IMG/VR virus record: IMGVR_UViG_3300032246_003079
Reading direction: 5' to 3' (one strand)
Origin: a virus
Length of the DNA stretch: 64,000 nt
Of the stretch, positions 8,564 through 15,167 are shown piece by piece. A program made the position numbers and the translations under genes. Within the stretch, counting starts at the first letter, position 1, and every line of letters starts with the position of its first letter. The notes beneath the pieces are model-generated. The model was not told the origin of the DNA. It worked only from the letters and a program-made list of their open reading frames with translations, and did not search any database.

Positions 8564-10199
8564 TTAAAACTTTAATATATTCTTCTTTTATTTTTTTCGC
8601 CACTTCAATTGAGTCAAATTTACTAACATCTGTCGGTGGTGTATGTAATTTTTTATCTAAAATATAACCACTACTTTCAACATTGTAAATCCACCCAGGT
8701 TTATTACACATCCAACCTTCAATAGTTGTTCTTCCCAAAAGAATACCTGCAGTTTCAGAACAGTTTTTAACATACTGTTCAACTTTACTTGTCGCGTTAA
8801 AATGTTTTACGTGTGGATTTTTTAATAAATCATCCAAGTAATTTGATTTATTTTCACCAACTAACCATAATTCTTTATTAATTTCAGAGGAGTATGTAAC
8901 TAAATCTTTTATTGTATTTTCTCTTAAATAATCAATTGTCCCAACAAACAAAACGTAATTATCATTTTTAATATTATTTGAATTGAATCTTTTTGTGTCG
9001 ATTGGATTATAAATTACTTCAGTATTATTTTTATCGATATTAAATTTTTCGACAATATGGTTTTGTATCTCAGGACGAATGCAAATATATTTTTTAATTG
9101 AATCGTTAATAATTGGATTTTCTAATTCTATGACTTCAGAATGTATTGTTGATATTTTTGAAATATTAGGATACATCTGACACATTTGATTTGAAACGGG
9201 AGTGTGTTGAGTATGGATTATATCATAATTAACATCACCAATTTTGTACATTACATTTGGTTGTGTTGGTTGAAATCCTTGTGGTGTGTTAAATCCCCAC
9301 TTTCCATCTCCCATTTTGTAACCAGGAGCATCTTGAAATGAAACTACTTTGATTCCTTGTTGTTTTGCTAATTGAGATAAGGGTCCATTAATGTCTGAAA
9401 GTACCGTAACATCACAATTTAACTTTTTTAATCCTCTTGCTAATTCATAAACATACATTTCTGAACCTGTAAAAGTTTTAAAAAATAAACAAGACAATAA
9501 AACTTTTAAAGGTGAATCGATTGTAAGATTTCGTTTGATTTTAACGGGTAAAACATCTTTGAATTTTTCTGCAAACTCTTCTCTATTTTTTTCCCATTGT
9601 TCATTAGTCATTCCGATTGATTTATGCGTGACTCTAACATCATACATAACACCTATTTTAACATCTTCTAAATAATTTCTAAAAGAAAAATCTACATCGT
9701 AAAAGTGAAACCCTTTAACTTCTTCGTTAAAGTTGTGTTTAATATTTTTTTTATTAATTGCCATAAATAATCCATCTACCAACAATACGTCATCTAACTG
9801 ATTACCCTTACTTGTTGAATATTTTGACTCCCATTTTTTTCCTTCATGTTCATGATTAACAATTCCTTTAAGTTTTGAAAAATCTTCCCACCATTTACCA
9901 GAAGAAGGTAATGATGTTGAGCCCGCAACTCCAAGAATGCCGTAGTCAGAATTTCTTTTAAAATAATTCAAAACCTTTGATGCCCAATTCTTACTGTCAA
10001 AATAAATGTCGTGATGCATAAATACAACTATATCATATTTTGATTCTTTTAAACCTTTATTATAAATCTCGGTTAAAGAATATTCTCCGTTATTTTTATA
10101 TCCTAAAAATTCAATTTTATTATGTAAACCACTATTTTTAGTAGTTTCTTTTTTAAAATTTTCTAAATCGTATTGAGATGAGCAAACTACACTTATCAT
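8556..10199 (-). CDS. Two-domain glycosyltransferase (N-terminal GT-A/GT2-like plus C-terminal GT-B/GT4-like)
   Basis: VFMHHDI, VDGLF and FHFYDVD in the N-half; FTGSEMYVYELA, IYNPID and GRTTIEGW in the C-half. Confidence 0.8.
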   Translation of the reverse strand: MISVVCSSQYDLENFKKETTKNSGLHNKIEFLGYKNNGEYSLTEIYNKGLKESKYDIVVFMHHDIYFDSKNWASKVLNYFKRNSDYGILGVAGSTSLPSSGKWWEDFSKLKGIVNHEHEGKKWESKYSTSKGNQLDDVLLVDGLFMAINKKNIKHNFNEEVKGFHFYDVDFSFRNYLEDVKIGVMYDVRVTHKSIGMTNEQWEKNREEFAEKFKDVLPVKIKRNLTIDSPLKVLLSCLFFKTFTGSEMYVYELARGLKKLNCDVTVLSDINGPLSQLAKQQGIKVVSFQDAPGYKMGDGKWGFNTPQGFQPTQPNVMYKIGDVNYDIIHTQHTPVSNQMCQMYPNISKISTIHSEVIELENPIINDSIKKYICIRPEIQNHIVEKFNIDKNNTEVIYNPIDTKRFNSNNIKNDNYVLFVGTIDYLRENTIKDLVTYSSEINKELWLVGENKSNYLDDLLKNPHVKHFNATSKVEQYVKNCSETAGILLGRTTIEGWMCNKPGWIYNVESSGYILDKKLHTPPTDVSKFDSIEVAKKIKEEYIKVLND

Positions 10200-11029
10200 A
10201 TTTTATTTTGTTTTTTTAACTGTCTCACTTTATTATAAACAGAACTTAATTTCTTACCTAATTGTTTAGAACACTCAACAGAGGTTATCTTACCATAATT
10301 TTCAATTAAGAAATTTTCATCTTTTTTTGACCAAAATTTAATTGATTTTTCATTTATGTAATTAACTATGTCAATGTATTTTTTATATTTTCTACTAAAC
10401 CCAATGTTATCATAATCACAATATATGTAATCACATAATATTTTAACATCGTTTTTTTTATTAACTCTAAAATGTGAATACCCACCCATTTTAACAACCC
10501 AATTATTAATTATAAAATTAATGTTTAATTTGTTGCACAAATCAATCATAAAAGACCAATCTTGATTATATGGACCAGCAAAAACAACATCTATTCCATA
10601 TTTTTTACCTAATTTAATACATCCGTCACCATCTAAATACCCGCGAAACCAATGTTTTTTTAAGTCTTCAGGTATTGAGTGTAAAATTTTATTAGGGGAT
10701 GAATTTGATTTATTAGTATAATCGTTTTTTTTTAATATTTCAAATAACCCCCAAGTTGACGTTGATATTTTTTTTTGGTTTTTAACTTGTTTACCTTTAT
10801 GTGTTTTAATTATAGGTTTACTTATATTCCAATGACCCGTCTTTAAAAAAATATTAATAACGTCGTTTATGTCCGATTCGCTACAATTTATAGAAGTTAA
10901 CTTATGTTCTTCCCTAATATGACCATCTGCCCATAAAAGACCTAAGATATATGACGATTCTTTATTAAATTTATTTTCAAATAATGAAACATCCACCTTT
11001 TTTTTATTTTTATTTTCACCTTTATTCAT
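10196..11029 (-). CDS. Free-standing LAGLIDADG homing endonuclease with C-terminal HTH-like tail
   Basis: Two motifs, SYILGLLWADG and WFRGYLDGDG; C-terminal WSKKDENFL...LGKKLSSVYNK. Confidence 0.85.
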   Translation of the reverse strand: MNKGENKNKKKVDVSLFENKFNKESSYILGLLWADGHIREEHKLTSINCSESDINDVINIFLKTGHWNISKPIIKTHKGKQVKNQKKISTSTWGLFEILKKNDYTNKSNSSPNKILHSIPEDLKKHWFRGYLDGDGCIKLGKKYGIDVVFAGPYNQDWSFMIDLCNKLNINFIINNWVVKMGGYSHFRVNKKNDVKILCDYIYCDYDNIGFSRKYKKYIDIVNYINEKSIKFWSKKDENFLIENYGKITSVECSKQLGKKLSSVYNKVRQLKKQNKI

Positions 11030-11094: not shown

Positions 11095-11697
11095 TTAAAA
11101 CAAATTCGTACTTCCAAATCCATTATCATTTCGGTCTTTTGAACCTAAATTTGAAATTTGTGTTAAATTAACCCATTTACCACTAACAACAGGACAAAGA
11201 ACCGCTTGGGCGATTTTTTGACCTTTTTCAATTTTAACTTTTTCTTGAGTGGTGTTAAATAAAATAACTTGTATTTCACCTAAGTACCCACTATCAACCG
11301 TGCCGGGTGAATTTAAAACAAATAATCCTTGATTTAATGCTAAACCACTTTTAGACCTTACTTGTATTTCATAACCATCGGGAATATCAAATTTCAAACC
11401 TGTGGGTATTAAAACTCTTGAATTTGGAAAAACGCATTTTTCTTCTGACGCCCTTAAATCAAACCCTGAATCACTTTTATATGCGTATTCAGGGTTTTGG
11501 TTCTCACTATTATTTACAAACTTTAAATCAACTGCAGATGTAAATTGGCCTTCAAAATGTTCATTAATTTCATCAACATTAAGTCCCATGGATTTTAACA
11601 TACTTTCAGGATTAGTCATGTCAACATCACCAAATTGAGATTGAAGCTCCTTTAAAGCTTTCATGCTATTTTTTAAATCTTTTATATTTTCAAACAT
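11095..11697 (-). CDS. dut: Trimeric dUTPase with ~55-aa N-terminal extension
   Basis: SGFDL, RSKSGLA, NSPGTVDSGYLGEI, KIAQ and GFGST motifs 1-5. Confidence 0.92.
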   Translation of the reverse strand: MFENIKDLKNSMKALKELQSQFGDVDMTNPESMLKSMGLNVDEINEHFEGQFTSAVDLKFVNNSENQNPEYAYKSDSGFDLRASEEKCVFPNSRVLIPTGLKFDIPDGYEIQVRSKSGLALNQGLFVLNSPGTVDSGYLGEIQVILFNTTQEKVKIEKGQKIAQAVLCPVVSGKWVNLTQISNLGSKDRNDNGFGSTNLF

Positions 11698-12425
11698 TAT
11701 TTTAAACTTTTTAATTTTTTTATTGATTCAATCAAAACATCAACATCTTTTTCACAGTATTTTGCAATTTCATCAAGTCTACTCTGATTCCAATATGCCT
11801 GATGAACCATACCTCCATTTATTTCACCATCTTTTGGTGTTGGAATATCTAAACAAGAACACATTAAATCTAAAGAACCAATTGAACTATACGAACCATA
11901 TTGCCAAATTTCTTTGGTGTCAATCGCTTTCACTTCCCATGGTTTGGTGTCGTATGACGGAAGTATTTTTGATGGCATAATATTGTTAATAATCATACGT
12001 TTTGCCAACATAGGAATATCAAAGTTTTTTAAATTATGTCCACACAAATAAAAATCTAATTTGTGACAACGGTCTAATAAATTTCTAACTTCCAATAGCA
12101 AATCCTCTTCGTTGTCATTTTTAAAAGTTTGTTTTTTTACATCACCGTTTTCTAAAACAAATGCCATTGATACACAAACAATTTTAGCAAACTCTGGAAC
12201 AAGTGCCGCTCTTGAAGAATAAACATCATTCATTTTTTGAAGTTCTTCTTCAAGACCATTTGTCTCAACGTCATCTTCAGGAAATCGTTTTAAAAACCAA
12301 TCAAAGTATTTAACAAATTGTTCAGCAATTTTAGGGTGATTTTCTTGACAAGTCCGCCAATCCTTACATATACCAACAGTTTCAATGTCGATAAATAAAA
12401 TTTTGTTAATAGGTATGTTTATCAT
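11697..12425 (-). CDS. Stand-alone PolB-type 3'-5' exonuclease (DEDDy)
   Basis: FIDIET, GHNLKNFDIP, YCEKDV. Confidence 0.85.
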   Translation of the reverse strand: MINIPINKILFIDIETVGICKDWRTCQENHPKIAEQFVKYFDWFLKRFPEDDVETNGLEEELQKMNDVYSSRAALVPEFAKIVCVSMAFVLENGDVKKQTFKNDNEEDLLLEVRNLLDRCHKLDFYLCGHNLKNFDIPMLAKRMIINNIMPSKILPSYDTKPWEVKAIDTKEIWQYGSYSSIGSLDLMCSCLDIPTPKDGEINGGMVHQAYWNQSRLDEIAKYCEKDVDVLIESIKKLKSLK

Positions 12426-13682
12426 TTTATTAAAGATTTATAAAGTTCCGCTCTATTTTTTGTGACCACATTCAAATCATATGTGTCTTTCACCGTTTCA
12501 TACAATCGTTGTCCCAAGTCATAAGCAAAGTTAGGATTATCAATTAATTTTTTCATGTTTTTAGCCCAATCACTATGATTTTTTACTTCATCTACTAAAA
12601 GTGCGTTTCCGTCAGAGAATTGACCATTTTTTAATGCGTGTTTTAAATCAATAGTGTAGGGACCAACATTTGAAGCAATAATTGCTTTTTTGTAAAAACC
12701 AGCTTCAATAACTTTTAATTGCGACTTAACTCGGTTAAAAATATGATTTACAATCGGTGATAATGAAACGTCAAATAATCTATAATTTGAAGCATAACTT
12801 GTAACAGGTTTTGTCCAAACTCGATTGTAAAAAGGTTCAGACTCCATAATATATTCTGAATCCTCAAATTTTTTCAAATATTCAATATGTTGGGGGGAAA
12901 CCATTTTATAATTGTCAGTAAAAATTTCTTCATAACGAGCCCATACGGTTTCTTCTGGTCGTATTGGTCTTTGTTTTTGTTCTCCCGTTTCTTTATTAAT
13001 TTCAGTAACACTTCCTCTTGTATCAAAACCACATAAATACAATGAAAATTTGTCATGACTATCTTTTAATTTATTCGTAACGCCGCTTAACAATTTTAAA
13101 TCGTGTAAGTGAGAAGAACCACCCAACCATCCAAAACGAAGTTTATCTGACGGTTTTGTTTCATGGTTAAATTGAGCTTCTTTTGGATTAATTGCATTTG
13201 GAAGAACGTATACGTTTTTATTAATTTTAGATATTTCTGAAGCAAATAAAGATGTTGTTGTTGTTACATGTGCCGCCACTTTTAGATTTGCAACTATCTT
13301 TTGATTTATTTTGTTCTGTATGATTAGTTGATGAATTGGGTGCTCTTTAGTTGGCAACCAATAATCATCTAAATCCATAATTGTAATTACACCAATAGAA
13401 TTTAATGTTTGAATTAATTTATTGGATTGGTCAAAATCTTGACCAATTGACCTATGGAAATGTACAATGTCGTATTGTTTCCAATAGTTATAATCATTAA
13501 TTTTTGGGTCATAATCTATATCTATGTGAAATTCATCTGAGTGATTATTTTGTAACATTACGTGGGGGTCTACAGACCTAAATTTTCCTTTAAATTCAGC
13601 CAACTCCAGTACGGTCGCTAGGGACGCATAGAACCCTAATTTTTTTGCGAACGTCTGGAGTTGGATTGCTCTCTTGATTCAT
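12422..13682 (-). CDS. GT-B (GT4-like) glycosyltransferase in two frames: 13682-13599 and 13585-12422, separated by a 13-nt insertion (about 415 aa if rejoined)
   Basis: An A-rich-context ATG at 13682 gives MNQESNPTPDVRKKIRVLCVPSDRTGVG-stop. Removing 13587-13599 joins it in frame to KFRSVDPH. Downstream are DLDDYW, VLPNAI, GWLGGSSH and KSQLKVIEAG. Confidence 0.8.
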
Positions 13683-14037
13683 GTTTTTTTATTAAGTTAT
13701 TTATTATTTGTGGGTTTGATTTCAATTCAGACTCCCACACCACTTCAAAAAAATAACCATTACTTTTTATTAAGTCAATTTTATTATTATCATATTCCCA
13801 TAATTCTTGTGCGGTTTTTTTCTTTACTTGGTGATAATAACTTGCGTCGTATTTTTTTGGGTTACAATGCCAATAATCTCCATTATATTCAATAATTAAA
13901 TTTAATTTAGGTATATATATGTCACATATTTTTGTGTCAATTTTTAATGAATGTTTTACTTGGTAACCCATATTTTTTATTTCTTCCAATATTTCTTTCT
14001 CTTTTTTAGACCTATTAATTGATTTTATTTTTCCCAT
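13636..14037 (-). CDS. Vsr/DUF559-like (EDxHD-type) endonuclease, free-standing
   Basis: SKKEKEI, CDIYIP, LIIEYNGDYWHCNP, D..K...GY...VWESE; its 3' end overlaps the true start of the glycosyltransferase. Confidence 0.75.
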   Translation of the reverse strand: MGKIKSINRSKKEKEILEEIKNMGYQVKHSLKIDTKICDIYIPKLNLIIEYNGDYWHCNPKKYDASYYHQVKKKTAQELWEYDNNKIDLIKSNGYFFEVVWESELKSNPQIINNLIKKHESREQSNSRRSQKN

Positions 14038-14077
14038 AATATGATTAATAGTCCCGACCTATCAAAAGGTAATAAAA

Positions 14078-14777: not shown

Positions 14778-15167
14778 TTATTCATTATCAAATTTAGCGT
14801 TAACTAAAACTCTAATCATTGATTTATCACCTTGTGGATTATAGTTAGGTCTAACTTCATCAAAGTTATCAAAGGAGGGTTTATATGTAAAGATTTTATC
14901 TACTCTAAATAATCTCCAACCTGGTAAAACATTACCTTTATTTTGTGCACTGTAGGAAGCACCTTCTCTTTCCCACGCTCTTAAAACCATATTATCTCTT
15001 TTTGAAAATCCTAAACACACAGGCTCTATTGTTCTATATCCTTTACCACCATTATCATTACCATCATAGTAAATTGTTACCACGTTTCTTTTTTTAATAG
15101 AATCCGTCATGTCAGAAATCGCAGCAATTTCTGTAATCAATTCACTAAGATTGTTGACTAATTTCAT
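14778..15167 (-). CDS. Stand-alone WYL-domain protein
   Basis: VTIYY...RTIEPVCLG...VLRAW...GWRLFRVDKI pattern. Confidence 0.75.
   Translation of the reverse strand: MKLVNNLSELITEIAAISDMTDSIKKRNVVTIYYDGNDNGGKGYRTIEPVCLGFSKRDNMVLRAWEREGASYSAQNKGNVLPGWRLFRVDKIFTYKPSFDNFDEVRPNYNPQGDKSMIRVLVNAKFDNE

Follow-up and report, generated by a model that had tools for sequence, protein, structure and literature searches.

How could a gene that is interrupted by a stop codon and a few surplus nucleotides (nt) still give rise to a complete protein? This question is raised by a glycosyltransferase (GT) gene of a lake phage, contained in the viral record IMGVR_UViG_3300032246_003079 of IMG/VR, of which a stretch of 64,000 nt, hereafter referred to as the window, was analyzed. 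All window features described below are located on the minus strand. The reading frame of this GT gene ends at a stop codon after only 28 codons and is taken up again in another frame beyond a 10-nt gap, and the interruption forms the end of a mobile cassette that also carries the remnant of a homing endonuclease. Taken together, the anatomy of the junction, the large family of natural variants to which it belongs and a hairpin specific to the interrupted alleles make it likely that the gene is decoded by a hairpin-assisted translational bypass, i.e. a hop of the peptidyl-tRNA across the gap.

The interrupted junction and its natural variants

The GT reading frame starts with ATG 13682-13680 and extends over 28 codons, MNQESNPTPDVRKKIRVLCVPSDRTGVG, ending in ACT followed by GGA (13607-13605), GTT (13604-13602) and GGC (13601-13599). 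This N-terminal piece (13599..13682), which belongs to the cassette, is composed of a 12-residue extension and a copy of the native segment IRVL..SDRTGVG. Its final codon, the take-off codon GGC (Gly; 13599..13601), is directly followed by the stop TGA (13598-13596), which opens the 10-nt gap TGAATTTAAA (13589..13598). Past the gap stands a second glycine codon, the landing codon GGA (13586..13588), after which AAA TTT AGG TCT follow in the +1 frame. The open reading frame (ORF) in this frame covers 12422..13603, and 387 codons are intact between the landing GGA and the TGA at 12424-12422. This putatively GT-B/GT4-like body (12422..13585) is 98% identical to that of the uninterrupted GT P0001. 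Removal of 13 nt (13598-13586 or, equivalently, 13599-13587) results in the continuous sequence TGVGKFRSVDPH. The succession of glycine codon, immediate stop, 10-nt gap, second glycine codon and resumed reading that was described in the initial annotation of this locus was confirmed in all its elements. Likewise, its assumption that the GVGKFRS motif is contiguous in homologues proved to be correct, as a search of 5.8 billion proteins yielded thousands of uninterrupted GT homologues, mostly of 404 amino acids, in which ...SDRTGVGKFRSVDPH is read without a break. A minority of the homologues is called as proteins of 393 (LAEFKGKFRS...) or 378 amino acids (MLQNNH...), which are the products that gene callers make from the interrupted gene.

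The identical 13-nt insert recurs at 10 loci of independent assemblies and, with one base changed, at locus L002; it therefore does not represent a sequencing error. We consider it extremely improbable that the interruption arose as an artefact of sequencing or assembly, or that its stop codon has been reassigned to sense: TGA, TAA and TAG all occur at the site, TGA also terminates the very same GT gene (12424-12422), and reassignment would not rescue the inserts that are out of frame.

That the insert might be a singleton, which the initial annotation had named among the grounds for refutation, was dispelled by a sample of 80 GT-seeded loci, 80 nuclease-seeded loci and additional pattern matches from IMG/VR and the JGI/ENA metagenomes. 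On viral and metagenome contigs, 222 interrupted loci were recovered, representing 115 unique junction alleles and 41 combinations of take-off codon, gap and landing codon. The interruption occupies the same codon position in all alleles, while the gap takes every length from 2 to 12 nt and hence occurs in all three frames. All 115 alleles have GGY or AGY at the take-off position, immediately followed in every case by a stop codon (TGA in 80, TAA in 34 and TAG in 1). Junction types, given as take-off/gap/landing, comprise the most frequent GGC/UGA/GGU as well as GGU/UA/GGU, AGC/UGAA/AGC, AGC/UGACA/AGC, AGC/UGACUA/AGC, GGC/UGAAUUA/GGU, GGU/UAACUAAA/GGU, GGU/UAACCAACA/GGU, GGU/UAACAAAAAACA/GGU and the window's GGC/UGAAUUUAAA/GGA.

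The codon pairs fall into classes that derive from few independent lineages, namely GGY>GGY with 85 alleles, AGY>AGY with 12, AGY>GGC with 11, GGY>GGA with 6, which include the window's, and GGY>AGY with a single allele. In 114 of the 115 alleles the landing codon is a Gly or Ser codon that could be re-paired by the take-off tRNA at two or more of its three positions. Strict wobble compatibility was found in 97 alleles, and 11 more would pair via U36.G1; in the AGY>GGC class, tRNA-Ser(GCU) could re-pair through U.G (U36 with G1) at the first position. The clade of GTs in which Ser/Ser pairs were found is about 50% identical to the window's GT and has the loop TGVS-(Y/F)FRS, and the loci L264 and L280, which share one background, differ only at the first base of the landing codon. 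Readability of both codons by the same tRNA is therefore a property of the family at large, and holds only in part for the window locus alone. In the uninterrupted alleles the equivalent codon is GGT, GGA, GGG or GGC (35, 23, 9 and 1 alleles, respectively), and the spacing from PSD to FRS is constant in all 67-68 unique alleles. At the sequence level, the landing codon sets the frame whatever the length of the gap, and the motif obtained by rejoining is that of the homologues.

Conventional recoding could in principle account for this site as well. The window locus would then be read by a +1 frameshift at GGC-UGA-A giving TGVG-EFKG-KFRS, relatives with inserts of 5, 8, 11 or 14 nt by a -1/+2 shift, and those with inserts of 6, 9, 12 or 15 nt by readthrough of the stop codon, with the loop being lengthened by 1-5 residues in each case. 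The shifted frame is indeed open across all out-of-frame gaps seen, a stop in the A site after a G-rich stretch resembles the +1 site of prfB, and the mismatch between GGC and GGA in the window would be irrelevant. However, three mechanisms would be required for one homologous site, and it would be left unexplained why a stop is universal and why each insert ends in a codon matching that of take-off (Gly to Gly or Ser to Ser). In addition, re-pairing of tRNA-Gly from GGC to GCU would be poor, UAA readthrough is normally very inefficient, and the loop that would have to tolerate extra residues is of invariant length in the uninterrupted alleles. We consider conventional recoding unlikely. A hop, in contrast, is independent of frame and would be the only single mechanism that restores the conserved protein sequence in all variants, and it is favored because one mechanism covers all gap lengths and frames and restores the invariant loop. 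The +1 shift and the pseudogene, which the initial annotation had listed as alternatives, are both conceivable when the window locus is regarded alone, but neither of them explains the whole family.

A hairpin ending at the take-off codon

A candidate stimulatory signal for the hop is present in the mRNA in the form of a covarying 5' hairpin that is specific to the insert alleles. In the window, a stretch of 65 nt (13600..13664) folds with a minimum free energy of -31.1 kcal/mol (z-score -4.65; matched by 0 of 200 shuffles), and the final pair of this hairpin, at the end of its 3' arm, involves the second base of the take-off GGC. When the 75 nt 5' of the take-off codon were folded, a comparable structure was obtained for 96 of 97 insert alleles (median -30.2 kcal/mol, z-score -5.3), with a span of about 64 nt and a helix that ends 1-4 nt short of the end of the take-off codon, whereas such a hairpin was found in only 4 of 66 uninterrupted alleles (median -8.2 kcal/mol, z-score 0). 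In line with this difference, the N-terminal piece measures 27-30 amino acids in all insert alleles (46 unique versions) compared to 16-18 in uninterrupted alleles, and the 5' arm of the hairpin is located in an N-terminal extension of 10-13 codons that is present in every insert allele and in no uninterrupted one. Among the insert alleles, 43 of 47 have GGG or GGA as the first glycine codon, compared to 31 of 71 among the uninterrupted ones, a synonymous bias that we ascribe to the constraint imposed by the hairpin on the N-terminal piece.

Covariation was assessed by fixing the register of the two arms on four non-wobble columns, while three codon-wobble columns were excluded from anchoring. 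A unique upstream anchor for the 5' arm was found in 92 of 99 insert alleles and in 1 of 66 uninterrupted alleles. At this register, pairing was seen in 261 of the 276 cells of the codon-wobble columns, two of which contained all four Watson-Crick types and the third three types, as opposed to 24-73% of the cells when the 5' arm was slid by 1-2 nt as a control. The hairpin is maintained by compensatory changes. This anchor-based count was used since RNAalifold predicted no pairs on a MAFFT alignment of the N-terminal pieces, in which the 5' arms were misaligned. Folding of the 86-nt stretch 13555-13640, which excludes the 5' arm of the hairpin, gave a z-score of +0.77, and a search of Rfam returned no match at E<=1 except for chance matches to leaders.

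Two further structures were observed around the junction. A 22-nt hairpin of the 13-nt insert type, with the stop in the stem and the landing codon in the loop (-3.3 kcal/mol, z-score -3.1), was considered as a family feature and rejected, as it has 0 kcal/mol in the L002 variant and cannot form in the other gap types. In the common GGC-UGA-GGU type (e.g. L036:2989-3024), the whole junction from take-off to landing codon lies within a second, downstream hairpin, in which GGGGUUGGCUGA pairs with UCAGUUGACCCC (-18.9 kcal/mol, z-score -4.6); its covariation is near zero, with one pair changed on both sides and most columns fixed by coding.

The position of the 65-nt hairpin also bears on the possibility that the gene is expressed in two pieces, with the 28-residue N-terminal piece ending at the UGA and the body starting separately at UUG 13603, in the +1 frame and after a GGAG. 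In the 13-nt type this UUG shares the frame of the body and is taken as the start by some gene callers, so that P0002 starts with LAEFK. Yet the GGAG, which the initial annotation had taken for a Shine-Dalgarno-like element, turned out instead to be part of the 3' arm of the hairpin, where it is buried in the stem and touches the UUG without any spacer. Moreover, in the in-frame types (6, 9 and 12 nt) the equivalent of the UUG is out of frame and the landing site offers no start codon, and the first beta strand of the enzyme would become a separate peptide of 28 amino acids. Expression in two pieces is thus very improbable.

For the bypass, we propose the following course of events. The cassette has replaced the native 5' end of the GT gene with its own diverged copy, which is about 12 codons longer and is followed by a stop and a few bases. 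The stop and the extra bases split the conserved TGVG/KFRS, the presumed target of the nuclease, and since this target is broken the carrier is presumably immune. During translation, the ribosome would read the 28 codons of the N-terminal piece and pause once UGA has entered the A site, with the GGC in the P site still bound by peptidyl-tRNA-Gly. Behind the ribosome, the 65-nt hairpin would tend to fold anew and thereby draw the mRNA through it, upon which the tRNA would release its codon, the mRNA would slide by 13 nt, the tRNA would re-pair with GGA and decoding would restart at AAA. The predicted product has the normal TGVGKFRS sequence.

Mobility of the cassette and decay of its nuclease

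In the window the whole cassette, consisting of the nuclease remnant, the N-terminal piece with its hairpin, the take-off codon, the stop and the gap, occupies 13589..14075. A blastn comparison with the cassette-free locus L005 delimited a non-homologous block that corresponds exactly to window 14075..13589, with homology restarting precisely at the landing codon, and the counterpart of this block in L005 consists of 146 nt of intergenic DNA and the native GT start. The cassette-free GTs P0001 and L005 are 96-98% identical to the window's GT, which represents a presence/absence polymorphism. A tract of the window (13526..14037) is identical to the cassette of L041 with 0 mismatches over 512 nt, compared to 61 mismatches in the next 1190 nt, and such an identical tract within a 5%-diverged GT background bears the signature of co-conversion. 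Separately, the nuclease-less loci L171 and L191 were found to be 98.6% identical over the 346 nt up to the landing site, while their GT bodies differ with a synonymous divergence (dS) of about 1.9; therefore, the 5' block or the GT body recombines even without a resident nuclease.

In the GT-seeded sample, insert and endonuclease proved to be linked: 9 loci had both, none had the insert alone, 2 had the nuclease alone and 49 had neither (Fisher p 4e-9). Furthermore, nearly all nuclease homologues, down to an identity of 37%, are located just upstream of this GT gene. There is also a second group of nuclease-bearing loci with neither the insert nor the N-terminal extension. Among the uninterrupted GTs, substitutions at the Gly-Val-Gly spot were observed in L122 and L123 (GVS), L116 (GCG) and L010 (GVF), and three of these four substituted alleles adjoin a nuclease of the insert-less subgroup. 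This association suggests that substitutions in the Gly-Val-Gly motif may be an alternative route to nuclease immunity.

Full-length relatives of the nuclease have 285-319 amino acids and comprise an N-terminal helix-turn-helix-like region, a Zn ribbon, a NUMOD3 motif (Pfam E 3e-6, above the cut-off) and a C-terminal nuclease domain; their middle region matches the DNA-binding Zn finger/NUMOD3 segment of I-TevI (1i3j). The C-terminal domain contains the invariant motif IEYNGDYWHCNP, reading E-x3-D-x2-H, and its AlphaFold2 model (mean predicted local distance difference test, pLDDT, 88.5) has Vsr (1cw0) and I-Bth0305I (3r3p) as best Foldseek matches, with a probability of 1.0, an E value of 2.4e-3 and a template modelling (TM) score by target of 0.76. 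Judged by this model, the protein is a free-standing homing endonuclease of the predicted Vsr fold that possesses a DNA-binding module in its full-length relatives. In the window merely a remnant is left (13636..14037), a 133-residue ORF that contains only the C-terminal Vsr-like domain and overlaps the GT start by 47 nt, as had been noted initially. Relative to L041, 525 nt are deleted in frame and the DNA-binding half is gone. The deletion occurred between two short similar stretches encoding MGK(K/I) (window 14016-14037 versus L041:2021-2041 and 2567-2588), and the remnant therefore retains the original start codon and reads directly into the nuclease domain, so that a nuclease domain devoid of its DNA-binding half may still be produced. 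Thus, of the Vsr/EDxHD-like endonuclease gene proposed in the initial annotation, the fold was borne out by the model, whereas the gene in the window is not intact.

The window represents one step of a decay series that leads from the full-length, 315-residue nuclease of L041 through the 525-nt in-frame deletion of the window and a still shorter version in L001 to the stop-riddled remnant of L002, beside which the hairpin, the stop, the landing codon and the full ORF are all retained. In 12 junction alleles (29 loci) no nuclease is left at all, and each of these 12 alleles retains hairpin, stop and landing codon, with a full-length GT ORF in 10 of the 10 that have complete data. Presence/absence polymorphism, co-conversion and decay series together support the notion, put forward at the outset, of a mobile homing cassette that uses another nuclease family and another host gene than the known design. 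A DNA search of cultured phages gave no match to the locus; at the protein level the closest GT among them is 35% and the closest nuclease domain about 40% identical.

The host gene product is a putative GT-B glycosyltransferase. Pfam matches to Glyco_trans_1_4 and Glycos_transf_1 are below the cut-offs (E 0.002-0.009), and a sequence search of the PDB with the GT gave no match. The AlphaFold2 model has a pLDDT of only 52, with a strand at residues 4-9 followed by a loop at 10-23, and all top Foldseek matches of this low-confidence model are GT-B enzymes (GlgM, BshA, PimA and PglA; E 1e-5, TM score 0.3-0.44). In the Ser-type clade (L115:3648-5801 and L120:3419-5596; also L124, L144, L152, L200, L244 and L309) the GT gene contains an in-frame insert of about 330 amino acids with a LAGLIDADG domain (Pfam E 2.5e-10), resulting in ORFs of 717-780 amino acids. 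This insert is very likely an intein, and given an intein as well as a bypass insert, one GT gene would host two kinds of selfish element.

Selection on the GT gene is relevant to the view that the insert is an immunity scar which knocked out a dispensable gene, and that the gene looks intact only because the cassette arrived recently. The last 14 codons of the N-terminal piece show a ratio of nonsynonymous to synonymous polymorphism (pN/pS) of 0.25 in frame, compared to 1.4 and 4.3 off frame, which points to purifying selection on this piece, which travels with the cassette, as a coding sequence. The ratio of nonsynonymous to synonymous substitution rates (dN/dS) of the GT body is 0.03-0.18 and is the same in insert-bearing and uninterrupted alleles. 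With horizontal spread of the cassette into diverged GT bodies, however, ORF integrity and body dN/dS would constitute weak evidence against a knockout, and truncated ORFs do exist at two loci, L299 and L281. On the other hand, a full-length downstream ORF is found in 92 of the 93 unique junction alleles with complete data, nuclease-decayed and nuclease-less alleles included, and the covarying hairpin, the exact stop (115/115) and the landing codon are all kept while length and sequence of the gap drift. Together with the coding-type evolution of the N-terminal piece, this makes a knockout quite improbable.

Several observations nevertheless weigh against a bypass by tRNA hopping. The GT ORFs of L299 and L281, both interrupted loci, stop after 99 and 130 codons, respectively; these short ORFs may belong to decaying copies or be due to low-coverage errors, L281 being a 1-kb contig with a coverage of 1.6x. 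As the cassettes are younger than their host GT bodies, the low dN/dS of the bodies is no proof of function after insertion and could for the most part date from the time before it. In the window itself, the pair GGC>GGA matches at two of three positions, and wobble rules do not allow a single G34 tRNA to read both codons; the early doubt about this imperfect match was justified, in that it belongs to a minority class with 6 of 115 alleles. No tRNA is encoded in the window. Codon matching could in part be a by-product of the way in which the N-terminal copy of the cassette abuts the native gene, and the 11-to-1 asymmetry of the mismatched classes AGY>GGC and GGY>AGY rests on about three lineages versus one.

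Three other genes were recorded in the vicinity of the cassette. Upstream of it, 14778-15167 encodes a stand-alone WYL-domain protein (Pfam E 1.7e-4). A gene for a PolB-type 3'-5' exonuclease (11697-12425) overlaps the GT stop (ATGA). A free-standing ORF of 277 amino acids (10196-11029), located downstream of the dUTPase gene (11095-11697), has two LAGLIDADG-like motifs (Pfam LAGLIDADG_3 E 2.6e-4, just below the cut-off) and probably encodes a second homing endonuclease of the window.

Relation to known bypass systems and implications

The coding gap of T4 gene 60, together with its MobA homing-endonuclease element, was reportedly described by Bonocora and coworkers in 2011. Elements of the gene 60/MobA type are characterized by matched Gly or Asp codons, a stop after the take-off codon, decay of the nuclease, an N-terminal extension that overlaps the nuclease ORF and an insert that ends at the landing codon (Manning & Atkins, bioRxiv 10.1101/2022.08.31.505936), and pairing of the exiting mRNA has been proposed as the driver of forward bypassing in gene 60 (bioRxiv 10.1101/2024.12.09.627546). 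The GT cassette resembles them in its matched take-off and landing codons (Gly, or in some clades a neighboring residue), its immediate stop, an N-terminal extension that is supplied by the insert and continues into a diverged copy of the host sequence it has replaced, the implication of a 5' stem-loop and the presumed protection of the carrier from its own nuclease by the gap. In contrast to gene 60, the gap of the GT cassette measures only 2-12 nt instead of 50 nt in T4 and at least 20 nt in known gene 60 relatives, and is therefore too short to accommodate a take-off stem-loop or an internal mini-Shine-Dalgarno sequence. The dominant conserved RNA element is instead the hairpin of about 64 nt, with its end at the take-off codon, and the take-off tRNAs would be Gly-GCC and Ser-GCU. 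The host genes differ as well, being a glycosyltransferase rather than a topoisomerase, with the GT cassette sitting at the 5' end and the gene not being split, and the nuclease is Vsr-like with NUMOD3 rather than an HNH enzyme such as MobA; VSR nucleases do, however, occur in some clades of gene 60. No sequence homology to the gene 60 element was seen, though no formal search was made, and the GT cassette would function like the gene 60/MobA element rather than being a member of it by homology.

Hops of +5 and +6 over a stop have also been obtained with Escherichia coli constructs, as far as these are summarized in a later account (Weiss et al., 1987; O'Connor et al., 1989, via bioRxiv 10.1101/2022.08.31.505936). 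In that summary, the arrangement of a take-off codon, a stop and a matching codon 5-6 nt further on equals the commonest GT variants (GGC-UGA-GGU and GGU-UA-GGU). As portrayed there, however, the construct sites are synthetic or adventitious and of low efficiency, while the GT site is natural and conserved, is accompanied by a strong hairpin and a mobile element, and would extend the move to 15 nt. The nuclease of the GT cassette, for which the model of the nuclease domain matches 3r3p and 1cw0 best, is free-standing, whereas I-Bth0305I (EDxHD) is intron-encoded. Ribosome-skipped coding insertions between matching codons, termed byps, are said to have been reported by Lang and colleagues in 2014 from mitochondria of Magnusiomyces capitatus; unlike the GT cassette, these reportedly measure 27-55 nt, are mitochondrial, occur in many genes and have no link to an endonuclease. 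In the literature that was searched, neither a bypass in a glycosyltransferase nor the GT cassette was found to be described.

What is known of efficient programmed bypassing in phages goes back essentially to a single family of homologues, that of gene 60 in topoisomerase genes. If the hop takes place as proposed, the GT cassette would constitute a second, independent bypass family with another host gene, another nuclease, other tRNAs and another range of gap lengths. With more than 100 variants of it, nature already provides a series of mutants that differ in gap length, stop codon, codon pair and hairpin sequence, which makes it testable what drives take-off, how far the ribosome can slide and how strict re-pairing has to be. 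The family would also extend the idea that homing endonucleases shield their carriers through untranslated inserts. For annotation it carries a warning, in that GT genes called as truncated (378- and 393-residue products) may in fact be whole.

A more far-reaching joint reading, to which we assign an even chance, holds that the 5' hairpin of about 64 nt and the stop alone would suffice for a slide of 5-15 nt onto the nearest downstream codon matching the P-site tRNA, that these cassettes would hence be minimal bypass modules in which neither a take-off stem-loop nor a gap-internal signal is needed, and that a Vsr-type homing endonuclease would rely on such a module for self-immunity, while the module would persist as a normal component of the gene after the nuclease has been lost. 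If this is true, short-range hopping would be a recurrent solution of mobile elements, and is likely hidden in other phage genes that appear to be broken.

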